A DNA stretch of 64,000 nucleotides from an uncultured virus (IMG/VR IMGVR_UViG_3300001242_000018) (IMGVR_UViG_3300001242_000018:1-64000); one strand, 5' to 3'. Positions 45,694 to 58,925 are shown, counted from the stretch's first letter. The notes: generated by a model from the letters alone, not told the origin. Made by a program: numbers and translations.

Positions 45694-46080
45694 ATGAATC
45701 TTAATAACGGTATCTTACAGACGATTTACAAAAAGGTAGTAGCGCCGGCTATAGCTAACGTTACTAAAGACGTTAGAGGGACTGTTACAGAATACTATCC
45801 AGAACAAAAGAGATGTAAGGTAAGATTTAGAGACCCTAATAGCCGTGGTATATGTGAATTGGTAGTACCTATACAAATCCAGGGTGGAATTAATCACCCT
45901 GGCCCATTTCCGGGAGAAGATGTACAAATCGTATTCCCGGGCGGTAATTATACCTTCGGTTATATAAGTGGGGTTCTAGATCTTAATTATAGCTCATCTA
46001 CAAGGGGTAGAAGACAAACCCATAGACGGAAGGGTTCTTTTATACCAGATATGATAGGTGAAAGGACTGGTGAGTTGTAA
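45694..46080 (+). CDS. Baseplate spike N-terminal OB-fold-like protein
   Basis: GTVTEYYPEQKRCKVRF...PFPGEDVQIVFPGG resembles the gp5/gpV OB domain. Position after the hub. Confidence 0.6.
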   Translation: MNLNNGILQTIYKKVVAPAIANVTKDVRGTVTEYYPEQKRCKVRFRDPNSRGICELVVPIQIQGGINHPGPFPGEDVQIVFPGGNYTFGYISGVLDLNYSSSTRGRRQTHRRKGSFIPDMIGERTGEL

Positions 46081-46604
46081 TGGCGTACGGGGGTCAATCA
46101 TTACGTTTAAATGAATATGCGAATAAACCAACAGATAACCCGTTACTCGAACTAAAACAAAGTGCGGAAAATGTAAGGTTTCCATCCGGTTCCGAACCAG
46201 CTTTAACACATCCTTTTAATACAAGTATTGTTAAGATACGAGACAATGGTTGTATTGATATTTTCTGTGGTACTAATGTCGGTATTAGATTAGATCCTAA
46301 CCTAGCTAACATATCGCTAATTACCGATGGAGAACGTCATCACACCGGATATTTAAGAGAATGGATACAAAAGGATGTAGAAAGACATGTTGGCCGTAAC
46401 ATTTTAACCAAGATAGGTGGTAATATCTATTTAGAAGCGCAGGGAAATTGTACTGTTAATATTGGTGGCAATGCCGACCTTAACATCGGCGGGAATGCTG
46501 ACATAGAAATAGGCGGAAATGTAAAGATTGATAATGAAGGTACCGTAGAATGGATGTCTGGTGGGAATATGTATTTCGCGGCACCTAACTACTTCTTCTC
46601 ATAA
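46080..46604 (+). CDS. Baseplate spike beta-helix protein (gp5 C-terminal-like)
   Basis: 8-residue repeats IGGN-x-x-x-x (KIGGNIYL, NIGGNADL, NIGGNADI, EIGGNVKI). Confidence 0.7.
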   Translation: MAYGGQSLRLNEYANKPTDNPLLELKQSAENVRFPSGSEPALTHPFNTSIVKIRDNGCIDIFCGTNVGIRLDPNLANISLITDGERHHTGYLREWIQKDVERHVGRNILTKIGGNIYLEAQGNCTVNIGGNADLNIGGNADIEIGGNVKIDNEGTVEWMSGGNMYFAAPNYFFS

Positions 46605-46635
46605 ATTAACTCAAGCTTTGTACAGAGGTGATAAA

Positions 46636-46977
46636 ATGCCAGCAGCTTGTAGAATAGGTGATAGAATGAATGGCAGCGTCGGACACCACAATGGTCATGG
46701 TTGTCCAGATAACTGATGTGGTGGCCACTCGGTTACGGGTGGCCAAGTGACCGGGAGTCACAATATGTTTATTAACGGTAAGTCCGCAGCAAGACTAAGC
46801 GATACAGGTTATACAACCTGCCCATGTTGTGGAGCAGGATATACGAATGTACAGGCTAGTACTAGTTTATTTGTAAACGGTCGGGGTATTGTAAGAGTTG
46901 GAGATGGAGTGAATATTCATCTCCAAGGGGCCGGAAATATGGTAAGCGGTTCTAATAACTTCTTTGTTGCGAGGTGA
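46636..46977 (+). CDS. PAAR spike-tip protein with an in-frame TGA at codon 27 (candidate selenoprotein), 113 aa
   Basis: SD GAGGTG then ATG 46636: MPAACRIGD...GHHNGHGCPDN-TGA-CGGHSVTGGQVTGSHNMFINGKSAARLSD...CPCC...VRVGD...H...GSNNFFV. The three PAAR-like repeats are complete only if TGA 46714-46716 is read through. Confidence 0.85.
46722..46745 (+). promoter_or_regulatory. SECIS-like hairpin in the PAAR gene
   Basis: TGGCCACTCG-GTTA-CGGGTGGCCA: 10-bp stem with one G-U pair. The loop begins after 15 nt following the TGA. Confidence 0.7.
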
Positions 46978-46981
46978 GATG

Positions 46982-47389
46982 ATGCGAGTAGCTAAAGATA
47001 TTGCAATATCTCCGGACGGTGATTTTATCATTCGAGATCACGATCTGGCCGTAGCTAAAGAAGGGGAATTTCAGTTACAGTCTATTATTAATAGGATAAA
47101 AGCTGTAAGGATTAATTGGAGATTAGATCATATCGGGGCGGATATGGAAGATATCATAGGAATGCCTAATAGTCCCGATACGGCTCAGCTTACTATTGAT
47201 AAGATTACCTTTGCACTAACTGAAGACGATCTTATAGATAAGAAAGATATCTATATCAGACCAGTCCCTATATCGAAAACTACGATATTGTTCTTCTTAT
47301 TTGTTAACAGTCCTTATTTTGCACAACCTATTAGTTTAGAAATTGGTTTAGATCTTTCCTCCGGGGTTATCAAAGTAATGGAGGTTTAA
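46982..47389 (+). CDS. Baseplate wedge gp25/gpW-like protein
   Basis: DIAISPDGDF...DL...QSIINRIK...W...IGADMEDIIG. Lies between PAAR and J-like genes. Its SD GAGGTG overlaps the PAAR stop. Confidence 0.7.
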   Translation: MRVAKDIAISPDGDFIIRDHDLAVAKEGEFQLQSIINRIKAVRINWRLDHIGADMEDIIGMPNSPDTAQLTIDKITFALTEDDLIDKKDIYIRPVPISKTTILFFLFVNSPYFAQPISLEIGLDLSSGVIKVMEV

Positions 47390-47391
47390 AT

Positions 47392-48240
47392 ATGCTCCTA
47401 AAGATCAACAAGGATTTTGAAACCATAATGACAAATGCTATGAATAGATTAGCAAATTCTGAGGAATTATCAGAGATTAGTCGTGGCGGAGTAACTAGAC
47501 TTCTACTGGCTATCTTTAACGAGGAATTTGCTAAGAGTTCAGAAAGTAATGTTGATGGTTTTTATGACACATTAAAGAAAGAACTGGTTCAAGCTTTCTT
47601 GTCTTATGCAGGAGAAGACGCACTTGATGCGATAGGATATATGATGTACTGTAAACGATACGTTGATGAAAAGGATGAACCGTATCGTTATCGAATTAGT
47701 CAACAACTGTTAAGTATGGCTACCTCTAATGAAACGGCCGTACGTCTTGCTTGTCTGTCGGTACCCGGAGTAGATGATGTTATTATGAAAGCGTATACTC
47801 ACGGCACCGGTTCCGGCTCTATATATGTTATTAATAAAGATCCGGCTGAGTTACCAAATCTTATTAAACAAGTAACCACTGCAGCTAGAATGGTCGGCGG
47901 TTGGGGAACTAGAATTGACGTATTTCAACCTCGGTTCCTTAATGTGGAGATTCGTATACGTATAATCTTTTACAAGGATGTATCAGAACTAGATCAGAAC
48001 CTTATTAGAGGTACCGCAAAGATTAGTACAGAAGATTACCTAGCGAGTCGTAATGCTGGGGAACCCTTGGATGTTAAATATATAGAAGAGATTGTATCTA
48101 AGATCAGTTTAGAAATCTCTGAAGTACAGATATATTACTTAACTGTAAATGAGGAAACGGTACTGTTGGTAAAGCAGCTTTGCGCCTGGAATGAGCGTTT
48201 TATCCCCACTCGTAAAGGAAATGCGGTAATTATTAGTTAG
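47392..48240 (+). CDS. Baseplate J-like protein
   Basis: ALDAIG...EKDEPYRYRI...NETAVRLACLSVPGVDDV...GTGSGSIYV motif. Confidence 0.8.
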   Translation: MLLKINKDFETIMTNAMNRLANSEELSEISRGGVTRLLLAIFNEEFAKSSESNVDGFYDTLKKELVQAFLSYAGEDALDAIGYMMYCKRYVDEKDEPYRYRISQQLLSMATSNETAVRLACLSVPGVDDVIMKAYTHGTGSGSIYVINKDPAELPNLIKQVTTAARMVGGWGTRIDVFQPRFLNVEIRIRIIFYKDVSELDQNLIRGTAKISTEDYLASRNAGEPLDVKYIEEIVSKISLEISEVQIYYLTVNEETVLLVKQLCAWNERFIPTRKGNAVIIS

Positions 48241-48250
48241 GGGAGAGGAT

Positions 48251-49492
48251 ATGAGAAAGCTAAAAGATCATCAGCTAAATAGTGGTAGAGTAACTGCCAT
48301 AGAAAATGAAATATCAGAGGCTCGAGGTTCTTACGATAGGCTTAAGAAATATATCGATACCAGAGGTTATACCGATTTTAGATTAAACGAAGCTGTTTGG
48401 ACTGGTAGTGCTATTTATGTCCCTATAAATCAAGGTACTGCATTTATCATGGGTTACGTTGTTCAGTATTCAGATATGATTAATATTTATATTCCAGGAG
48501 CTATGCCTGAAACTACTTATTATTTCTTTATTAATACAAATGGTACTATCATTTATAGGAATACTCCAGAGGAATTAGAGACCGACATGATTATCGGTTC
48601 GGTTTCTACAGGTACTCAAGTAGATCAACTAATAACTAAAGACTTGCGTCATATCTTAAGAAAAGATGGTATTTACGAAGAAGTAGTAAAAGCCCGAGGT
48701 TCTTATGATAATCTTAAAAACTATATTGACAGTAAGAAATATCTTGAGCTTACCCTTGGTAAACCCGAAGTAGATGGCGTGAATGTTAAAGTTCCTATTT
48801 ACGGTGGTCGTTCTTATATACTTGAACAGCTAATTGAAAAAGAAGATCAGGTATTTACATTATTAAACCCTAACTTAAATACTACATATTATTTCTTCTT
48901 AGACCAACATGGTACTATCGTTTATGATACGATATTATCAGAATCTCGCTCTAAAATGATACTTGGTACCCTTGTTATAGGTGAGACGCTAGATCAACTA
49001 ATAACTAAAGACTTGCGTCGTATCTTAGATAAGGATGGAGTTAAAGAAGAAGTAATCGAAGCTAGGGGAGAGTATCCAACTTTAAAGGAACGTTTAGATA
49101 CCGAATTTGATATAACTACAAATATCGGTAACAAACGATCTGCTATTATCTGCATTAAGGATATATTATTTCCACACACAATAGGCTTAATTCAGGTTAT
49201 TATTCCAGAACATTTTGTAATGTCTAAGGTTATGATACGTGCTAATAATGCACCCATTGGCTCTGATTTAGTACTAGATATTAATAAGAATGATATTAGT
49301 ATTTTTACAGATCAAAGTACAAGACCACGCATTTCCGATGGACAAAATAGCGTTGTGGTCGAATCTATTAACGTGGATTTCTACGAGGGAGATATATTCT
49401 CTATTGATATAGATGAAACGGGTTTGATTACTCCAGGTGGTAAAGATTTGATGATAACCGTTAAGTTCGATCAGACCGGCGATAGGGGTTAA
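48251..49492 (+). CDS. Tail fibre/baseplate-associated protein with a tandem 123-aa duplication
   Basis: EARG(S/E)Y..LK motif occurs three times. Two ~123-aa units, then a C-terminal domain. Confidence 0.6.
   Translation: MRKLKDHQLNSGRVTAIENEISEARGSYDRLKKYIDTRGYTDFRLNEAVWTGSAIYVPINQGTAFIMGYVVQYSDMINIYIPGAMPETTYYFFINTNGTIIYRNTPEELETDMIIGSVSTGTQVDQLITKDLRHILRKDGIYEEVVKARGSYDNLKNYIDSKKYLELTLGKPEVDGVNVKVPIYGGRSYILEQLIEKEDQVFTLLNPNLNTTYYFFLDQHGTIVYDTILSESRSKMILGTLVIGETLDQLITKDLRRILDKDGVKEEVIEARGEYPTLKERLDTEFDITTNIGNKRSAIICIKDILFPHTIGLIQVIIPEHFVMSKVMIRANNAPIGSDLVLDINKNDISIFTDQSTRPRISDGQNSVVVESINVDFYEGDIFSIDIDETGLITPGGKDLMITVKFDQTGDRG
48621..49019 (+). repeat. Exact 30-bp direct repeat (48621-48650 and 48990-49019)
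   Basis: TAGATCAACTAATAACTAAAGACTTGCGTC occurs twice, 369 bp apart and in frame. Confidence 0.9.
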
Positions 49493-49536
49493 TATAGTAT
49501 TGGTCAAGAATTACTTTAAAGTGGGAGGTTGGAGTT

Positions 49537-50544
49537 ATGTATTTTACTGGTACAAGTCTTTACCCAGATGGTTTACTAGCTGATATCGCTGCTGCTGTAG
49601 TTAGTATTCCACAAGGTAAAACAGATCCCTATTGGGATAATATTACGTCAGATTCGCCAGTTGCTACAAATCTCTATAAACAAGTATTTAAATCTAGGGC
49701 TAAGGTAAATAGTCCAGACAGTAGAAACCTTTTCTGTGTAATCGGAGCTCTTGCTACGACTAGTGCGTTTAATAGCACCGCTAGTATTAGTGGTTATGCT
49801 CAAAATACTATCAATTCTAATTCTGGTCTTACATTAGGCGGGGCTCAGAATTATGTACCAGGAACTACCGGAGTAGCTGGTACGTTCGAAAATTTGATTG
49901 AACAATCTCTATTCTTAAGAGCGGGTGTATTACCGACTAATTTTGGTATAGGTAATGTGAACTGGCACTTAATCGTAGAACCAACATCCATCGTATTGGC
50001 TATTGAAATTAACGGAGACTCTAATGCAAGAGCGGTTGGTTTCTTCGGAACTGTCGATCCTCTCGAAGACCATCCGGATGGCATGCCTATCATCTGTCAG
50101 AGTACTACGCAAAGTCCTACTTTTGATAGGGCTTTAACTGCCGTATCGGGCCCTTATAATTACGTCAATCAAGATTATTATTGGTGTCAAGGTTCTTACG
50201 ATCCATATATGGACATCGGATATACAAGAAAGTTATTCTTAAGATCTGTTCCCGCTTATTACCATGATGGTGTTAATACCATGAATACAGTACCGCTTGG
50301 TGTCTTAACAAATATCTATACTTCAAGATTCGATAGAAGTAATATCCGAATTCTTGGTACAACAGGTTTCGCTGCCACGGTAGATACGGGTGAGAATAAA
50401 TACCTTGTAGTATTTCCTTATCCAGTAGCCTCAATCTATACTCCACAGTCTGGCGTAGGTACCCCCTTAGACGGGTTTAGAGCTAGAAAAACTATTAATA
50501 TAACTGAGAAAGATTATGCTATTGTGATTAAATATACTCCTTAA
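49537..50544 (+). CDS. Putative virion structural protein (paralogue of the core of 50563..53574)
   Basis: AQNYVPGTTGVAGTFEN motif shared with the next gene. GGAGG SD. Confidence 0.5.
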   Translation: MYFTGTSLYPDGLLADIAAAVVSIPQGKTDPYWDNITSDSPVATNLYKQVFKSRAKVNSPDSRNLFCVIGALATTSAFNSTASISGYAQNTINSNSGLTLGGAQNYVPGTTGVAGTFENLIEQSLFLRAGVLPTNFGIGNVNWHLIVEPTSIVLAIEINGDSNARAVGFFGTVDPLEDHPDGMPIICQSTTQSPTFDRALTAVSGPYNYVNQDYYWCQGSYDPYMDIGYTRKLFLRSVPAYYHDGVNTMNTVPLGVLTNIYTSRFDRSNIRILGTTGFAATVDTGENKYLVVFPYPVASIYTPQSGVGTPLDGFRARKTINITEKDYAIVIKYTP

Positions 50545-50562
50545 GGAGGTTTCATTAAAAAA

Positions 50563-53500
50563 ATGACTATTTATGCAACAAGATGTCAAATTAAAGATTT
50601 AGCATCGAACGTATGGAAACAGCTTGAAGCCGAAGGCTGGGAGAGTGTAATGTCTCGTCCTGAAGACGGTGTTATGAAGAAGCAACTTCCCACCGGCCCT
50701 CTCTTTATACGTATAACTCCGGTCATTGCAAATAGCGACCGTTTTACATTAGGCCCTGCTGAAAACTATCAGCCTGGTACCACGGGCGTAGGATTATCTA
50801 TCGACAGAACTACACCAGGCTTAGATCCTAATATGGAATCCTTTGAGATTAGTGTAGCTGATTTACCCACCTATGATGGTAATACTACCTTAACCATAGG
50901 AACTACTCCTGTTATCATTCCGGTATATAGCGGTAGTGTTAGGGTGGTAGCTGAGAAAATTCGCGATACGTTACTGAGCGACTCGGCAATAGCTATGGCT
51001 TACGATGTAATTGTAGACGTTAATGGTAAAGTTATAATTACAGCCAAAGATTCAAGGGCTATTGACTTTAATATGAGTATAACTGATACCATTACCGGTG
51101 TTACCGCAAGTGATATAGAAACGATACCTGGTATTACACCGGTTAATGAAGAACGCACTATTATTGTAAATAGTGGTGCTACTGTTTCTGGTACGCTTAA
51201 TATTAACTTTGATGACGGTACTATTATTAAGCCCGGTATTAAGTTTCCAGTAGTCGGTAACGATACAGCTGCTCAAGTTGCTGGTAAAATTAAGACAGCT
51301 TTAACTAGCGATAACGATATTAATACAGCATATACAATAACTAATGTGATAGATACTAATATAATAACCATAGCTTCTAAAACTGGTGGCCCTAAAAGTA
51401 TTACTATTACCATTACCGAAGTTCCTAACGGAGTTGTCAAGACAATTGCAGAAACTCAAATAGGTGTTACATCTGTAGCTGAAGTATTTGACTTAACGGT
51501 AACAGGTTCTCCTATTACCAGTGGGAATGTTAGCTTAATCTTAAATAATACTCCGGTAAATGTAACTGTAAGTAATGGTGACAATACTACGGAAGAAGTC
51601 GCGGCCAAGATTAGAAATGTACTAGCCACTGACACGGATGTTTCCGTCTCGTATACAATTTCCGGCTCTGGTAATCAGGTTATTATTACTAAGAATGATG
51701 TAGGCGCTGTAGATTTAACCATAGCTGTTGCTGGAAATAATACCGGCATTGGTGCCACCTTCGTTGAAACAACTCCCGGGGATGTTTCAATACAAGAGGT
51801 TAATACAATTACTGTTAACTCCGCTTGTACTGCTAATGGTACGATAAATGTATTCTTTGGTGATGGTGTAATTAATAAGACTATTGACGTAAACGTAGTA
51901 ACAGCTGATAGTCTTCAAGAAGTGGCCTCAGCTATACAATTTGCAGTAGATGCTTTAGCAGATTATGTCGCTATCGTTAACGATAATGTCGTAACCATTG
52001 CCGCCGCTTCCGCAGAGAGTCAAGTAGATGCTACTTTTAACCCTAATGATACTGGCACTACAGTTACTATTAATATAACTCAACAGGGTATTACCGGCGT
52101 AAAAGAGATTAATACACTTACGATTACAAACGTATCTAATATCTCACAAACCGGTGTAATTAACTTTAATGATGGAATAATTAATAAGTCAGTTAACTTT
52201 GATATTCTATCTACAGATACGATAGATACCTTGGCTGTTAAGATTGCTATTTTGTTAGAAAACGATGGTCAAATTGGTTCTAGTTATACAATAACCAGTA
52301 CAAATAATAACGTAATAATCTCACGAGACGCTACCGGCGCTGTTGATACTGTTGTTACATTAGGTGTAGTAGCTATCGAAGTAAATTGTTCTATAACTCA
52401 GTCTGTAGTCGGTGTAACAGGCGTCGCTGAAGTAAATACACTAACAGTCTTAACAGGTGCGATAAACGATGGTACTATTAGTATTAATTTAAGTGATGGT
52501 ATCTTAAATAAAACCTTAATCGCGACTTTAAATGGAGCTGATAGTTTCACATCTATAGTTAATAGGATTCGTACCGTTGCCGATGCTTTAGATAATTGGA
52601 ATGCTACTGTAGTGGATAATGTCGTAACTATTTCATCTACACTAATGGTTGACAATCCAGATCCTACTTTCGACGCTAACGATACAGGTACCGTTTTGAC
52701 CATTAGTGTATTAGCTCAAGGAGGTAGTGGTTCTAAAGAAGAAAATACTATCAAAGTGCTTTCCAATTGTACGACAACCGGGCTATTACAAATCTTTGTT
52801 AGCAATGGCATTATTAATAAGGAGATTCAGGTGTCGGTTACGAGTGGACAAACTGTATCACAAGTAGCCACTGCTATAAAGAACAAACTTACAGCTGAAG
52901 CCGAGGTAACCAATACTTACGATGTAACTATAAATGTTAGTAATATCGATTCAATCTTAGTAACACGTAAGACAATTGGCCCATTTAATACCACAATTAA
53001 ACTCGGATATCTTACCGGATTGGCCGGTACTTTTACTAACGATCAAAGTAAATCTGTATTCTTTGCCTCGGCTGTAATCGTAAAGACTTCACCATTTAAC
53101 TATAAGCTCTATACATTCGATGATCATATTGTCTTATCTATAATAGCAGAAGTAGCTATAGCTGGTGCTGTCAATGCATTGCATTATGTAGGACGGCTTA
53201 AGCTATTTGGAGTTGAACCTAATAATACAGCTGTCGTATTAGCTTCGACAAATATTGAAGGAAATTCTAAAATCTATCCACTTAAAGATAAAGCTAATAC
53301 TGTTAATGGGCCTGCTTACGATTTCTATTCAGCTTTGCCGCCATCTAACCCTGGCGGCGGCGGGTTGTATTATATGGCTCCTATCGAGGTTGGTAGTATT
53401 AGTGATGGTATTCGTGGAGAGATTGATCATGTTTATGCGATTCCGTTGTCGGGTGTAATCCAGGATGATACCATTACCGTAGGTAGTCAGGTGTATGATA

Positions 53501-53574
53501 TTCATACAGCAGGTTCGATCGGATATAGTAGTTTAGCAGGAACTAGAGCAGTTGCTGTATATAATCGCGGATAA
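50563..53574 (+). CDS. Virion fibre/appendage protein with about seven ~105-aa repeats
   Basis: Repeating E.NTITV...G.I.I...DG.INK...VA.KI...L...Y.I...N.V.I units, Thr/Val/Asn-rich. Confidence 0.65.
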   Translation: MTIYATRCQIKDLASNVWKQLEAEGWESVMSRPEDGVMKKQLPTGPLFIRITPVIANSDRFTLGPAENYQPGTTGVGLSIDRTTPGLDPNMESFEISVADLPTYDGNTTLTIGTTPVIIPVYSGSVRVVAEKIRDTLLSDSAIAMAYDVIVDVNGKVIITAKDSRAIDFNMSITDTITGVTASDIETIPGITPVNEERTIIVNSGATVSGTLNINFDDGTIIKPGIKFPVVGNDTAAQVAGKIKTALTSDNDINTAYTITNVIDTNIITIASKTGGPKSITITITEVPNGVVKTIAETQIGVTSVAEVFDLTVTGSPITSGNVSLILNNTPVNVTVSNGDNTTEEVAAKIRNVLATDTDVSVSYTISGSGNQVIITKNDVGAVDLTIAVAGNNTGIGATFVETTPGDVSIQEVNTITVNSACTANGTINVFFGDGVINKTIDVNVVTADSLQEVASAIQFAVDALADYVAIVNDNVVTIAAASAESQVDATFNPNDTGTTVTINITQQGITGVKEINTLTITNVSNISQTGVINFNDGIINKSVNFDILSTDTIDTLAVKIAILLENDGQIGSSYTITSTNNNVIISRDATGAVDTVVTLGVVAIEVNCSITQSVVGVTGVAEVNTLTVLTGAINDGTISINLSDGILNKTLIATLNGADSFTSIVNRIRTVADALDNWNATVVDNVVTISSTLMVDNPDPTFDANDTGTVLTISVLAQGGSGSKEENTIKVLSNCTTTGLLQIFVSNGIINKEIQVSVTSGQTVSQVATAIKNKLTAEAEVTNTYDVTINVSNIDSILVTRKTIGPFNTTIKLGYLTGLAGTFTNDQSKSVFFASAVIVKTSPFNYKLYTFDDHIVLSIIAEVAIAGAVNALHYVGRLKLFGVEPNNTAVVLASTNIEGNSKIYPLKDKANTVNGPAYDFYSALPPSNPGGGGLYYMAPIEVGSISDGIRGEIDHVYAIPLSGVIQDDTITVGSQVYDIHTAGSIGYSSLAGTRAVAVYNRG

Positions 53575-53586
53575 GTTGGTGATCAC

Positions 53587-56500
53587 ATGGCAAAGGACTC
53601 TTTGCAATTTAATATCTATGATAAAGAGTCATTTGTCATCCCAAATATTGACGGCATCGATTTTCTAGTTGATGCCGTCACTTTACATAAAACAGTACAT
53701 GAGTATGTAAAGGACGGGCTATTAATCGATTTGATTGCTGCCCGAGCTACAGAGGATGACAAACATGGCTCTAATCCATTATCTACATGGATTAATCTCG
53801 CTGCAAGCGGAGATTGGAAGTTGACCGAGCTTTCTGACTTTAACTTTATTTCGGACGGCTGGATAGGGGATGGAACTAATGCAAATCCCTATGCTCTTTT
53901 ATTTAACGGTATAAATAGTAAATGCACTCTTAGCTATAATCCTGTTTATGATACCTTTACCCTGGAAGCGTGGGTTCAGACCGATCAATTACACCAGATT
54001 GATAATGAGATAAATACAGGTTCTTCTCCAGGATTAGATGGTCAAAAGTATTTGTTTTATCCTTCTAAATATATAGATACTAGAGTTGGTGCAGGGGTAT
54101 CTATAGGTTCTAACGGAGTTAGTGTTTACGAATACGGAGATGCTCATTTTCCCGCAGTGGCCGTTTATAGCGGTGAGGTTACGGGAATAACCCATGTCAT
54201 TGTAGAGTATATAGATAGGCAACCGTTTATTTATATTAATGGAGTATTGGTACGTATTGGACTTAAGTCTAATATGACACGAGTATGGTCACCAATTATT
54301 ATGGGCGCAGGCCCTTATGGAGCCTTTGATGGTTGTGTTATTATGGCCAGAATATATAATAGAGTACTTAGTCAAGAAGAGAAACAAATCAACTATCAGG
54401 CTGGATTTGTATTATTCTCTTATCCTATAATCCCTTATCACATTACTACCGGAGATAATCAGATAGATTGTAGCGAAGTTAAAAAGATCCTTAATATAAT
54501 GGCTGTACAAATAGAACCCGAGGGTACTTTGTTAAGATACTTGGTAAGCTTTGATAATAAAGGTAGCTGGCTAACTTATAATACCGTATGGCAAGAAGCG
54601 TCACTTGACGATATAGATAGAGTAGGTATGACAGCAGACGAACTAAATACTGTAGATTGGAACTATTTTCAACCGGGCGTACATGGAAATTTAAATATAG
54701 CAGTTGCTCTTGCTACCATAGATATAAGTATTACACCATCTGTAAGTAAACTTTTAATAGAATACGTCGGAAACTTACTAGGCGTAATTACTAGGACAAC
54801 TATAGCATGTTATATAAATAACGTATCAGAAGTTACCTTTACTCATCCTTCTGATGAAGTAGAGAATATACCAACAATAGTATCTAGCGGAGCTGCTATA
54901 GATACAATAGCTGGTACTATAAGCAATACCTGTAGAATTAATGGTATTAAAGAAAGAATGGATAATAGTATAAATATTCCTATCTTATCGCGAGCTGGAG
55001 CTTTAATTGCGAGTCATTTAGTAGGAGTTTATAAAAGTAGTCATAATAACGAGGAAGATAAGATAGACTTTTTAATTATTAATGATCTAATTAGTATCGA
55101 TCCCGTTATACCTAAACTTTCTGGTAATGTTTTAGAGTATTTAAAAGGTCTTCATATACCGTCTTACTACAGTACTAAACCTTTAGATTTGATATGTGAG
55201 ACTGTTGACATTGAAACATTAAAGTCGATTCAAATATTGGATAAAACACCTTCTATATTTACTTCTATATGTAGCGATCGACCGATTAATATAACCGTTA
55301 CTACAGATGATTATACAAGGATAGATACATCTAATATAGTAACAATTAAAGACATAAATAAGGACTATTACAGTAATGGAAATGAAAGATTCTTATTTAG
55401 CTTTGACAATAGAAATACTTGGTATTCTTATGATTATAGTACCAACCAATGGGTTATTGTAAGTTTAGATGATATTCAGGAGAAAGGAATGACATTTTGG
55501 CAAGTTAGTTCTATTCCTGAAGAAACTTGGAGTACAAAGTTGTCAGAATGGTTAGACATGGCTATTAGATTAATAGCCTATCCTAGCGATAGTAATGAAA
55601 CAATATACGATTTCACTTATACCGGCAATTACATAACATGGATAGCACCTTTTACAGGCGATTACCGATTAGAAGTATGGGGTGCTGAAGGTGGATTGCC
55701 GGGAGGAAGTTCAATAACCGGTGGTCTCGGAGGTTATACTAAAGGTACGATTACTTTAACCCAGGGTGATATTTTATACATCTGTATTGGTGGATATCCG
55801 GGTCGTGCTAAAGCAGGAGGTTGGAATGGTGGAGGTAATGGAGGTACCGATACCAGTAGTAGTGTTCGTTATGGTGGTGGCGGTGGTGGCGCTACTGATA
55901 TAAGAGTTGGCGATACTTCTCTTTCTAATAGAATTATTATTGCTGGCGGTGGCGGTGGCGGTGGCGAGTATGGAAATTCTCGTTACGGCGCTGGCGGCGA
56001 AATACAAGCACAATCGGGCGCTGGTCAATTAACTACCAATCCAGCACGAACGGGTGCTGGTTATCAATGGTCTTGGGGTGGTGGAGGAGGTTCTCAAACA
56101 CAAGGAGGTGTAGGAGCCGGAACGTATGTAAAAGGTGGGAATGGGACGCTATATCAAGGCGGCGCAGGAGATACTGGTTGTTGCTCTGGTTCAGGCGGTG
56201 GCGGTGGCGGTTATTATGGCGGCGCGGCCGGTGGTAACGATTCGCCACATGGTTCTGGATATTCAGCAAATGGCGGCGGTGGTTCTAGTTATACAGACGG
56301 AGTATCGGACGGTACTATGCAGATTGGAGTTCAAGCCGGGAATGGTAAGGCTAGAATAACCTTATTAAATACGACAATGTATACTGTTAATGGATTCACT
56401 TTCAGAACAATTGTTAATAAATTCGATGTCTACCAGATACCCATGTTAACGGGGTTTAAATTAGATATTCCTATTCACGAGGTTTTAGAAGAGAAAGATT

Positions 56501-57171
56501 CTCCTGTATTAATACCTTTTCGTACCTTAAAGAACTTTGATGGAAATGCTATAAGTATAATCACAGGACTTCTTACTAATAACTCAAGTCATTATATCAC
56601 AGGAATATTGGAATCTGGAGATTTAGATAAACTGTTCACTATTGATATTCCAAAGAGCTTTACAGGACTTAAATCGGAAATAGTCTGTAATTTCTTAATA
56701 AGTAAATCGAGTTATACCGAACCAGATGTTGATGATATCTTATATATACAAGATTTGCCTAAAGAACAGGTAAAGAGCGATACTATCTATTATGACAAAG
56801 AAGAACAGTTTGCAATGCTCAATATTATTGATAATCGTGAAGATACAGAATTTATAGTTATGACAAATGACTATAATAGAATTGACACAAGACAAGCCGT
56901 TGCTATTCAAGATATTGTGGCCGATTATCAAGAGATCGATGGTATACAAATTAGATTCTTATTAAGCTTTAATAATCGAGAAACCTGGTACATTTACGAC
57001 CACGATACTAGTTCTTGGATACAGAAGGGTATAGATAACATTCACAATACAGGAATGACATTCTGGCAACTTAAATCCATACCGCGAGATGCTTGGCATA
57101 AAGCTTTAACTAACTGGTTAAATGTTTGTGTAGGATTTAAAACCTTTAGTGACAACTGGATTTACGGATAG
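53587..57171 (+). CDS. Receptor-binding/tail fibre protein: LamG-like domain, glycine-rich domain and repeated SFDN...W modules
   Basis: FTLEAWVQT...YINGV...ARIYNRVLSQEE (LamG_3-like). YRLEVWGAEGG...GGGGGATDIR...RIIIAGGGGG (Gly_rich_2-like). Confidence 0.72.
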   Translation: MAKDSLQFNIYDKESFVIPNIDGIDFLVDAVTLHKTVHEYVKDGLLIDLIAARATEDDKHGSNPLSTWINLAASGDWKLTELSDFNFISDGWIGDGTNANPYALLFNGINSKCTLSYNPVYDTFTLEAWVQTDQLHQIDNEINTGSSPGLDGQKYLFYPSKYIDTRVGAGVSIGSNGVSVYEYGDAHFPAVAVYSGEVTGITHVIVEYIDRQPFIYINGVLVRIGLKSNMTRVWSPIIMGAGPYGAFDGCVIMARIYNRVLSQEEKQINYQAGFVLFSYPIIPYHITTGDNQIDCSEVKKILNIMAVQIEPEGTLLRYLVSFDNKGSWLTYNTVWQEASLDDIDRVGMTADELNTVDWNYFQPGVHGNLNIAVALATIDISITPSVSKLLIEYVGNLLGVITRTTIACYINNVSEVTFTHPSDEVENIPTIVSSGAAIDTIAGTISNTCRINGIKERMDNSINIPILSRAGALIASHLVGVYKSSHNNEEDKIDFLIINDLISIDPVIPKLSGNVLEYLKGLHIPSYYSTKPLDLICETVDIETLKSIQILDKTPSIFTSICSDRPINITVTTDDYTRIDTSNIVTIKDINKDYYSNGNERFLFSFDNRNTWYSYDYSTNQWVIVSLDDIQEKGMTFWQVSSIPEETWSTKLSEWLDMAIRLIAYPSDSNETIYDFTYTGNYITWIAPFTGDYRLEVWGAEGGLPGGSSITGGLGGYTKGTITLTQGDILYICIGGYPGRAKAGGWNGGGNGGTDTSSSVRYGGGGGGATDIRVGDTSLSNRIIIAGGGGGGGEYGNSRYGAGGEIQAQSGAGQLTTNPARTGAGYQWSWGGGGGSQTQGGVGAGTYVKGGNGTLYQGGAGDTGCCSGSGGGGGGYYGGAAGGNDSPHGSGYSANGGGGSSYTDGVSDGTMQIGVQAGNGKARITLLNTTMYTVNGFTFRTIVNKFDVYQIPMLTGFKLDIPIHEVLEEKDSPVLIPFRTLKNFDGNAISIITGLLTNNSSHYITGILESGDLDKLFTIDIPKSFTGLKSEIVCNFLISKSSYTEPDVDDILYIQDLPKEQVKSDTIYYDKEEQFAMLNIIDNREDTEFIVMTNDYNRIDTRQAVAIQDIVADYQEIDGIQIRFLLSFNNRETWYIYDHDTSSWIQKGIDNIHNTGMTFWQLKSIPRDAWHKALTNWLNVCVGFKTFSDNWIYG

Positions 57172-57179
57172 GAGGTAGT

Positions 57180-58925
57180 GTGGTGGATTTACAAGTATTT
57201 AATTTTAACTATACCGGTAGTCAACAAGAAGTAACACTACCTCCCGGTATATATAAGCTTGAAACATGGGGCGCTCAGGGTGGTAATAATGGAGCTCCCG
57301 GTGGTTACGCCTCTGGTATTTTAAACTTAGGGGATACTGAAACTCTTTATATATATATTGGAGGAATAGGAGCTCCTAATTCTACTGGTTGGAATGGAGG
57401 CGGTTTTGCTAGTCCTTATGGCGGCGGCGGTGGTGGTACCGATATACGAAGAGGAGGACAAACTCTTAATGACCGTATCCTGGTTGCTGGCGGCGGAGCT
57501 GGACACTCTCATACAGCTCAAGGTGGCGCTGGTGGTGGATTAATTGGTATTGGTGGAACTACTGGCAGTGGAGGTACACAAACACAAGGAGGTAGTTCAG
57601 GAGGAGTAAGTGGAACATATGGTAGCTTTGGTTACGGTAGTAATGGAATAAGTCATGGTTCTGGTGGCGGAGGTGGATGGTACGGTGGCGGAGGTGGATA
57701 TACTTGAGGTAGTTCCGGTGGAGGAGGTTCCTCCTATTATGGTGGAGTTCTAAACGGTATCACTACCCCTGGAATTCGTACTGGATATGGTAAGGTTGCT
57801 ATAACTTTACTTGCCTTACTGGGTATAGAAGAAGCTGTTGAAACTGCGGTATTTAATAGTTCTGGTAATTATCAGACCTTTATTGTACCAACTACAGGAA
57901 TTTATCAATTAGATCTTTTCGGTGCTGTAGGTGGTGCTTATTCTTACCCTGGTGGTTCTGGTAGTCATGTTCGTGGTCAAATGTTATTAGATTCCGGTCA
58001 AGAGTTATATATATTTGTCGGCGGGGATGGAACGGGCTTTATTGGCGAAGGTGGAGGATGGAATGGCGGTGGTAATGCCGGGCCGCTAGGGCCTGGTGCA
58101 GGTGGTGGCGGTGCTACCGATATTAGAAGAGGCGGTATAGAATTAGAAAATAGAATTATCGTTGCTGGTGGCGGTGGCGGCGGTGGGAATTTAAGCGCCG
58201 GTAGTTCCGGTGGAGAAACTTTGCATTTAACTACAATATTAGGCAATGGTCAAAACCATCCAGAGATTGGCGGTGGTGGCGGTGGTGGCTACTACGGTGG
58301 TATGGCCGGTGATATAAATAGGGGCGGATATGGCGGTTCTTCGTATGCTGGTAATTTACGTAACCCTATTATTAATACAAATATATGGTATAATGCAGGT
58401 TTGGTTATTATATCAAGATTGCCTACGTATACCTCGTTTATAAATTCATTAACGTTTAAGACTATCGTTAGTTCTTTCGAAATTATTAAGCTGACCTTCT
58501 TAATGGGCGATTTAAAATCTAGTAAGCCCGTCGATATAGAAATAGAAATACTATCATCCGATAGACAAGAGACTATACCTGAAGAGCAAATCGATACTGA
58601 AAAACTATATTGTATTGATAGTCAACAAATTACGATAACTGATGATAATAACCGAATTGATACAAGCGATACTATTACGATTGAAGATATAGAGATTGAC
58701 CCTAATCAGTTATACGATATTAAGATCTTATTAAGTTTTGACAATAGAAATACCTGGTTAGCTTATGATCATAATAGTCATACTTGGATAGAATATAATA
58801 CTAACGATGTTAGTATATATGGCATGGCCTTCTGGCAACTTAAATCTATACCAGAAGAAGTCTGGAGTGAGAAACTTTCTATCTGGTTAAATCTTTGTAT
58901 ATGGGTTCAGACAGGAGATGTATAG
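57180..58925 (+). CDS. Double glycine-rich domain tail protein with an in-frame TGA at codon 176 (candidate selenoprotein), 581 aa
   Basis: ORFs 57180..57707 and 57981..58925 are one frame. The 91 codons after TGA 57705-57707 (GSSGGGGSSYYGGVLNGITTPGIRTGYGKVAIT...YQLDLFGAVGG...) complete domain 1 and begin domain 2 without another stop. Confidence 0.82.
57715..57742 (+). promoter_or_regulatory. SECIS-like hairpin in the glycine-rich gene
   Basis: GGAGGA-GGT-TCCTCC core (57720-57734), extendable by CCGGT pairing with ATT and GG across bulges. Loop (A)GGU(U) lies about 18 nt after the TGA. Confidence 0.55.

Follow-up and report, generated by a model that had tools for sequence, protein, structure and literature searches.

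We uncovered a gene for a PAAR-type spike-tip protein that is interrupted by an in-frame TGA in the uncultured virus IMGVR_UViG_3300001242_000018, together with a second gene of the same virus, coding for a glycine-rich tail-region protein, that is interrupted in the same way. The virus record (G000) comprises 137,036 bp and is estimated to be 61% complete, with 39% of the phage genome lying outside it; the window is the first 64 kb of this record, and positions are given in window coordinates. The PAAR gene occupies positions 46636 to 46977 and the TGA is its 27th codon. We hold it to be slightly better than an even bet that, in both genes, UGA is decoded as an ordinary amino acid, other than selenocysteine (Sec), by a UGA-reading tRNA. 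With a second gene interrupted like the first, the cause would lie in how UGA is read in the phage and its host rather than in the PAAR protein.

An interrupted PAAR spike-tip gene

The initial annotation of this DNA described a PAAR spike tip with a TGA in its metal-binding loop, and the identification as a PAAR protein held up by several approaches. The translation matches the Pfam family PF05488 (PAAR_motif) over residues 34-92 (E=3e-11, 43.8 bits against a cut-off of 27) and displays three PAAR-like motifs, PAACRIGD (residues 2-9), SAARLSD (50-56) and GIVRVGD (84-90), the first of which lies before the TGA, as had been claimed. When the TGA is read as a residue, AlphaFold2 predicts a single PAAR cone (mean pLDDT 92.6, pTM 0.85) of which the N-terminal strands form a part (pLDDT 98 for the N-terminal block), the least confident part of the model being the TGA-bearing loop (block 21-30, pLDDT 66). 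The six best Foldseek matches of this model in the PDB are all PAAR proteins, with TM values of 0.57-0.78 over 80-117 aligned columns and a best E-value of 1.3e-3, slightly above the tool's 0.001 line; they comprise E. coli c1882 (4JIW), V. cholerae VCA0105 (4JIV), T4 gp5.4 (4KU0), phiKZ gp163.1 (6P1Z) and two phage baseplate tip proteins, which it resembles in the cone fold. The sequence matches in the PDB were weak, and metal-site residues could not be mapped from them.

With the TGA read as U, the protein runs MPAACRIGDRMNGSVGHHNGHGCPDN-U-CGGHSV...CPCC...NIH...FFVAR; the part past codon 27 begins CGGHSVTGGQVTGSHNMFINGKSAARLSD and continues through CPCC, GIVRVGD, NIH and FFVAR to the terminal TGA. 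Codon 27 adjoins a Cys within the His/Cys-rich tip loop (HGCPDN-TGA-CGGH), and the CPCC cluster and the distal His noted in the initial annotation are confirmed as well. The same is true of the upstream ATG at 46636 with its Shine-Dalgarno-like sequence, of the status of the table-11 open reading frame from 46747 as a fragment, and of the use of UGA in two ways within one cistron, internally at 46714-46716 and terminally at 46975-46977. The tryptic peptide spanning codon 27 (x) would be MNGSVGHHNGHGCPDN-x-CGGHSVTGGQVTGSHNMFINGK.

PAAR proteins that have been solved or tested bind Zn at the tip via His and Cys, and PAAR caps the VgrG trimer, according to the part of the source cited here (PMC10715212). 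Like known PAAR proteins, the one studied here combines the PAAR_motif match and three motifs with a putative gp5-like needle gene upstream and with kept His and Cys columns in the tip, namely H21 (126 of 154 homologue segments), C23 (112), C28 (134) and H31 (128); C64 is invariant among 31 sequences. Unlike them, it has an in-frame UGA interrupting the first tip loop, which is also longer here (HGCP-DN(UGA)-C-GG-H against the common HGCPxCPH), and an additional CPCC cluster.

Evidence that the gene continues across the TGA

The TGA is present in the DNA of the population and is not an assembly slip, because the contigs of three samples from two studies are identical. The Logan contigs of runs X1 and X2 (groundwater), which may be the record's own source samples, show 0 differences over 46000-58500 at a k-mer depth of 22-29, and a 447-nt contig of run X5 (sediment, another study) covers 46697-47143 with 0 differences, reaching only 17 nt to the left of the TGA. 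The possibility, raised with the initial annotation, that the TGA occurs in a single assembly can thus be set aside.

Homology in the same frame continues on both sides of the TGA, and hence the PAAR gene appears, as far as sequence can show, to be still one gene: residues 11-21 (MNGSVGHHNGH) and 28-37 (CGGHSVTGGQ) match intact homologues, e.g., ...GSVSHHAGH...CSGHSVSGSQ, the latter stretch at 8 of its 10 positions. Two ways around the codon were considered and rejected. A ribosomal bypass from AAC (codon 26) to AAT (codon 43) would skip residues 28-42, which are conserved in homologues, and a +1 or -1 frameshift at the TGA conflicts with the match of the zero frame to homologues right after the TGA, both shifted frames hitting stops.

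A search of 5.8 billion clustered proteins recovered no full-length close relative; its two matches among five candidates of 62-198 aa were the window's own 70-residue PAAR fragment, which is recorded on four contigs of up to 220,066 bp, and P0002. With P0003, added by a search of 1.84 billion representatives, and P0393-P0395, added by cluster look-up, there are five distinct relatives (P0002, P0393, P0394, P0395 and P0003, from JGI, Logan and ENA) of ~72-75% identity. Their called starts are the equivalents of codons 33, 33, 44, 44 and 38, and all five calls lack the N-terminal PAAR motif that is present in every intact homologue; their C-terminal parts are intact and conserved at ~25-28% divergence, with no further damage. 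As all five are called without the N-terminus, they are most simply explained by an in-frame stop ahead of codon 33 throughout the clade, with the rest of the gene under selection; alternatively, the calls could have been shortened by an upstream gene that overlaps the start in the relatives. In IMG/VR, the relatives' DNA was found neither by three protein-based scans nor by one with a DNA pattern. Two loci from a metagenome scan have no more than the word CPCCGAG in common with the PAAR gene and are unrelated, and a Pirellulales metagenome-assembled genome contig with a 68% RecA segment lacks a PAAR relative.

A second in-frame TGA in a glycine-rich tail-region gene

The TGAs at 46714 and 57705 are the sole two that are internal to real coding frames in the 137 kb. 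The second is codon 176 (context GGGGGYT-TGA-GSSGGGGSSY) of a 581-codon gene for a protein with two glycine-rich domains (GRDs) of the ALK/LTK type, which gene callers would split into pieces of 175 and 314 residues; the best PF12810 stretch, residues 16-209, spans this codon. The codon-176 column is variable across 390 segments of homologous domains, drawn from 120 proteins, with D 81, S 81, G 48, N 33, C 27 and W 0. Seven of the first 45 distinct segments listed have the local motif G[YD]TGG[SA][SG]GG, and all seven show G at this position; homologues of this motif class read GYTGGSSGG or a near variant (GYTGGS[SGA]GG) where the phage has GYT-TGA-GSSGG. By this alignment the second TGA stands for Gly, being one base from GGA. 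We also considered Trp, which is unlikely: the count of W is 0 in both the codon-176 column (390 segments) and the codon-27 column (154 segments), and the glycine-rich gene retains each of its 11 TGG codons. The neighbouring upstream GRD paralogue (53587-57171) is intact and, at 30% identity, uninformative at codon 176. A short-protein search for split GRD relatives gave no close relative.

An unusual hairpin after the PAAR TGA

The hairpin described in the initial annotation is real, with 10 pairs, one of them G-U, enclosing a GUUA loop (UGGCCACUCG-GUUA-CGGGUGGCCA) and a stability of -18.8 kcal/mol alone. The 60-nt fold at the TGA has -25.3 kcal/mol and z = -3.60 (0 of 200 shuffles as stable), and the stretch of 42 nt behind the TGA is in the top 0.07% for folding when compared with 40,944 in-frame codon positions of the genome, and in the top 2.8% when compared with 323 windows of similar G+C. 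Moreover, pairing is possible at each of the seven synonymous third positions of the stem (p=0.0013 given the amino acids and the genome's codon usage). Because both the rank of the fold and the synonymous-site probability are unusual, the hairpin is probably functional. Directly behind it lies a second small hairpin (GUGAC-CGGGA-GUCAC), which a scan listed as terminator-like with a weak T-run behind it; it opens with GTG, the earliest codon at which translation could restart. Behind the second TGA, the 6-bp hairpin GGAGGA-GGU-UCCUCC is ordinary (60-nt z = +0.31; top 11.5% of 5,607 G+C-matched windows). Rfam gave no match near the TGA within 46000-48000 at E<=10, and only tRNAs across the genome.

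UGA as a terminator and the tRNA genes

UGA looks to be an unreliable terminator in this phage. It is the rarest of 103 terminators (TGA 11, TAG 27, TAA 65), and in a comparison devised after seeing the data the next TAA or TAG behind the 13 TGA-terminated genes follows at a median of 5 codons (0, 0, 1, 2, 2, 5, 5, 5, 6, 7, 11, 36 and 42), against 13 codons for the 102 genes ending in TAA or TAG (one-sided Mann-Whitney p=0.004, one row, the internal TGA of the glycine-rich gene, being dropped). Such a back-up stop lies within 7 codons in 10/13 of the former and 31/102 of the latter (Fisher p=0.0017). Both in-frame TGAs (2/2) fall within the baseplate/tail block and none in the replication half. 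There is precedent for either pattern: code-11-compatible phages linked to Gracilibacteria/Absconditabacteria have TGA stops closely trailed by other stops, in the portion of that study cited here (PMC10746230), and other, low-G+C phages acquire in-frame TGAs in their structural and lysis genes before elsewhere, once TGA stops are rare, according to the cited portion of that preprint (bioRxiv 10.1101/2021.08.26.457843). Gracilibacteria and Absconditabacteria, the code 25 lineages in which UGA is Gly, are described as reported from groundwater in the material drawn on here.

The tRNA genes of the record form an array at L007 3930-6950 (G000 107.9-110.9 kb) with 11 members, for Pro, Met (two), Leu (three), Ser (two), Tyr, Gln and Asn. 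A tRNA-like remnant with the anticodon CAU and without an acceptor stem (L007 6361-6415) was missed by ARAGORN and found by Rfam.

Decoding of UGA and competing explanations

We propose that the internal UGA of the PAAR gene would be translated as an ordinary residue to give the full-length 113-residue cone, and that the same decoding would operate at 57705 in the glycine-rich gene, the genome's only other internal UGA. The likeliest agent would be a UGA-reading tRNA, with near-cognate read-through as the alternative agent. Our best guess for the inserted residue is Gly, which would fit the second site well and the PAAR site acceptably, Trp fitting neither column. The tRNA might be supplied by a host that reads UGA as Gly (code 25: Gracilibacteria/Absconditabacteria), or might be a suppressor tRNA encoded in the 39% of the phage genome outside the record. 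A general reading of UGA explains the Gly-aligned second site, the missing Cys homologues at the PAAR site and the back-up stops; it leaves the hairpin unexplained, for which reason we suggest that this structure, which starts 5 nt past the PAAR UGA, would increase read-through there, either by delaying the ribosome or by impeding release factor 2. We infer all four elements, namely the decoding itself, the inserted residue, the tRNA and the help of the hairpin.

Several observations weigh against this proposal. The hairpin at the PAAR site is improbable by chance (0.07%; 0.0013), although a neutral Gly codon would not require one. The PAAR column does not single out Gly either, x in HGCPxCPH being A, G or S and the residue of the nearest long-loop class Y. 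The relatives are known as protein calls only, so that a TGA at the same codon in them is extrapolated, and the back-up-stop comparison rests on n=13 genes and was, as mentioned, post hoc. The genome otherwise uses the standard code, its coding density going from 95.45% under table 11 to 95.92% when TGA is read as sense, and its two internal TGAs in ~42,000 codons are far below what code-25 or code-4 phages carry; since the coding density hardly rises and only two TGAs are internal to real frames, we rejected code 4 or 25 for the genome as a whole. Neither the 11 tRNAs predicted by ARAGORN nor the tRNA-like element found by Rfam in this 61% of the genome has a UCA anticodon, and a scan of 111 proteins revealed neither a release factor nor an aminoacyl-tRNA synthetase. 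Finally, the phage RecA carries no host signal, being ~50% identical to that of Pirellulales and 43-45% to that of Gracilibacteria.

The hairpin would also be explained by programmed leaky read-through, in which a near-cognate tRNA (Trp, Cys or Arg) of a standard-code host would read the UGA, stimulated by the hairpin at the PAAR site, and a few per cent of the ribosomes would continue, keeping low a protein used once per virion. PAAR is indeed present as a single copy on the spike, and the close back-up stops would be accounted for as well, as would the location of the two sites within loop columns that vary. Nevertheless, we regard this as unlikely: hairpin-stimulated read-through is established for eukaryotic viruses, no well-established example from bacteria being known to us, the two UGAs are followed by U and G, which do not make the contexts known to us as leakiest, the second site is without significant structure, and the main product would be a 26-residue waste peptide. 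It is less likely still, in our view, that the TGAs are true stops and the genes broken or split, with the PAAR gene either dead or yielding a 26-residue peptide and a C-terminal piece from the GTG at 46747 (codon 38). Such a split would agree with the GTG lying directly 3′ of the hairpin, with gene callers in three sources giving the C-terminal part alone and with the calls of the relatives beginning at codons 33, 38 or 44. Yet the product of a restart at codon 38 would be without Cys28 and His31, two residues that 134 and 128 of the 154 segments, respectively, retain. Moreover, the 8/10 match of residues 28-37 to intact homologues, the undamaged C-terminal part across relatives ~25-28% diverged and the place of the N-terminal strands in the predicted cone at pLDDT 98 all tell against a split, and the same defect would have to sit in two essential structural genes at full frequency in three samples.

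The initial annotation had itself proposed Sec at codon 27, and this part of it found no support: the combination of 0 Cys in 154 segments, the Gly-aligned second TGA, the close back-up stops and the absence of Sec machinery from the 137 kb tells against it. The idea is that host SelB and tRNA-Sec would read UGA-27 with the hairpin as the Sec insertion sequence (SECIS), placing Sec beside Cys28 in the metal-binding loop at the apex of the needle, the second UGA either encoding a further Sec in the glycine-rich tail protein or having a different cause; we consider it improbable, for either gene. What probability it keeps stems from the hairpin, an unusual one (top 0.07%) that comes close to the bacterial SECIS model. 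As given in Fig. 2 of the source, that model, a permissive one, calls for a stem of 4-16 bp, a loop of 3-9 nt that has G in its first two positions, a minimum free energy <= -7.5 and 16-37 nt between UGA and loop (PMC13188914). The PAAR hairpin fits in loop (GUUA, four nucleotides with G then U), stem (10 bp) and energy (-18.8 kcal/mol) and, with a spacing of 15 nt, is 1 nt short; the second site has a GGU loop, 6 bp, -7.6 kcal/mol and a spacing of 18 nt. By post hoc criteria, hairpins of the PAAR grade follow 0.15% and of the GRD grade 2.2% of 40,848 codon positions, the second being ordinary after G+C matching (11.5%). Besides, the interruption looks conserved across the clade, and the NrdD and NrdG genes described below suggest an anaerobic host; many anaerobes use Sec. 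What counts most against Sec is the alignment that the initial annotation had suggested as a check. The codon-27 column is variable and non-Cys (gap 85, A 29, Y 8, V 5, P, L and R 4 each, others, C 0), the common class being HGCPxCPH with x = A, G or S and the nearest long-loop class P[IV]YC[SNT]GH; a minority CCPH class (14 of 154 segments) could place a Cys at this column if shifted by one. Where the cited section sets >50% TGA/Cys pairs for Cys/Sec pairing (PMC1088965, section 18), the PAAR site has none, as column 27 is without Cys in the 154 segments. At the second site Cys accounts for 27 of 325 non-gap residues, and the closest motif class has Gly in a non-redox, Gly-rich loop. Furthermore, there is no Rfam match near the TGA (46000-48000, E<=10), neither the 111 scanned proteins nor the 11 tRNAs of the 137 kb include tRNA-Sec, SelA, SelB or SelD, and decoding bound to a SECIS would leave the close back-up stops unexplained. 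Compared with SelB-read selenoprotein genes, of which E. coli fdhF with its SECIS inside the reading frame is the bacterial prototype, the PAAR gene is alike in its in-frame UGA followed by a stable hairpin with a small apical loop starting G then U. It is unlike them in having no Cys homologues at the site, in coding for a non-redox structural protein and in its spacing 1 nt short; at the level of the phage, the differences are the lack of Sec machinery in the 137 kb and the second UGA in a Gly column. Nothing relevant to a phage selenoprotein appeared among the literature matches listed, and the main text of a 2026 review of the prokaryotic selenoproteome, as represented here, is without the words phage, virus and viral (PMC13188914).

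Comparison with other phages

Decoding of UGA as an ordinary residue by a tRNA, the explanation we favor, invites comparison with two groups of phages. The TGA-recoded phages of animal guts, as described in the cited part of Borges et al. (bioRxiv 10.1101/2021.08.26.457843), share with the present phage the restriction of TGAs to late structural genes, with replication genes in the standard code, the rarity of TGA as a terminator and a low G+C (38.6% in this record). They differ from it in carrying dozens to hundreds of in-frame TGAs rather than two, in their suppressor tRNA, none being seen in this 61% of a genome, and in habitat, groundwater rather than gut, while a strong hairpin after one site sets the present phage apart. 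Moreover, the only change that this part of the preprint reports for phages differing from the code of their host is TGA to Trp, unlike the two sites here, which are without Trp (0/390 and 0/154). The phages linked to code-25 hosts in the cited part of Liu et al. 2023 (PMC10746230) resemble the present one in their standard-looking gene map and in TGA stops backed by close stops. They are, by that account, without in-frame TGA, unlike the present phage with its two in genes indispensable to it; the latter is also much larger, the identical PAAR fragment standing on a 220,066-bp contig. The published examples are either fully recoded or free of in-frame TGAs, and this phage carries two.

Neighbouring genes and other features

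The window contains the structural block of a contractile-tailed phage, with capsid and sheath genes and, among the features of Table 1, the gp5-like needle, PAAR, gp25-like and baseplate J genes; the runs in which this DNA occurs are labelled as groundwater and sediment metagenomes, and no RNA run is listed for it. The gp5-like gene just upstream of the PAAR gene was assigned from matches under the curated cut-offs, that to Gp5_trimer_C having 23.5 bits against 30.9. The gp5-like gene followed by the PAAR gene is presumably the same arrangement as gp5 followed by gp5.4 in T4.

Table 1. Coordinates of the PAAR gene, the glycine-rich gene and associated features in the window
Feature	Position	Strand	Evidence or remark
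gp5-like spike (needle) gene	46080..46604	+	Pfam Gp5_trimer_C E=6.4e-5, Gp5_C E=0.0099, both under curated cut-offs
Shine-Dalgarno-like GAGGTGA	46625..46631	+	4 nt before the ATG at 46636
PAAR spike-tip gene	46636..46977	+	113 codons including the in-frame TGA; translation, Pfam, AlphaFold2, Foldseek
In-frame TGA, codon 27	46714..46716	+	HGCPDN-TGA-CGGH
10-bp hairpin, GUUA loop	46722..46745	+	starts 5 nt after the TGA
Second small hairpin	46747..46761	+	directly after the main hairpin
Terminal TGA and back-up TAA	46975..46995	+	TGA at 46975-46977 inside the GAGGTGA Shine-Dalgarno of the next gene; TAA at 46993-46995, 5 codons on
gp25-like sheath-initiator/baseplate gene	46979..47389	+	Pfam Sheath_initiator E=0.0079, under cut-off
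Baseplate J-like gene	47392..48240	+	Pfam Baseplate_J E=1.8e-6, over cut-off
Glycine-rich (ALK/LTK GRD-type) tail-region gene	57180..58925	+	open reading frame with TGA=X; Pfam PF12810 E=1.9e-47
Second in-frame TGA, codon 176	57705..57707	+	GGGGGYT-TGA-GSSGGGGSSY
Weak 6-bp hairpin	57720..57734	+	-7.6 kcal/mol, after the second TGA

Four giant genes of the virion block lie within 25554-45685 and 62021-72469, the latter range running past the window, and code for proteins of 1,933, 2,700, 2,073 and 3,482 residues. A subtilase domain is present in one of these, amidase, 3D, NlpC/P60 and M23 domains occur in another, and a further one has numerous Big_2 repeats; the 2,073-residue protein carries four cell-wall hydrolase domains, and the 2,700-residue protein has no Pfam match. 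Elsewhere in the record, an 84-residue protein (L007 7224-7475, minus strand) matches the Acb2/Tad1 hairpin domain (E=1e-20) and is a candidate sponge for cyclic-nucleotide defence signals. An anaerobic ribonucleotide reductase, NrdD, with an intein that bears a LAGLIDADG endonuclease domain is encoded at L007 8423-11806 on the minus strand (G000 112423-115806), and a radical-SAM activase-like gene (NrdG) is found at L008 10610-11107. As the phage carries both of these genes, its host is probably an anaerobe.

Implications

Because gene callers in three public sources reduce the PAAR gene to a fragment, the spike-tip proteins of this clade are mis-annotated. Should the UGA encode Sec after all, this would be the first bacteriophage selenoprotein, in which Sec would for the first time serve a structural and non-enzymatic role, as metal ligand or selenylsulfide, and selenium biology would extend to viruses. 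If, instead, UGA is read as an ordinary residue by a tRNA, as we favor, the phage would represent the very first step of stop-codon reassignment, with a genome that is standard in 99.99% of its codons and two indispensable virion genes that are completed only where UGA stands for an amino acid, its own UGA terminators being insured by back-up stops. Host range, or the timing of virion assembly, would then hinge on how the cell reads a single codon, and the phage would offer a natural two-site system on how recoding starts.

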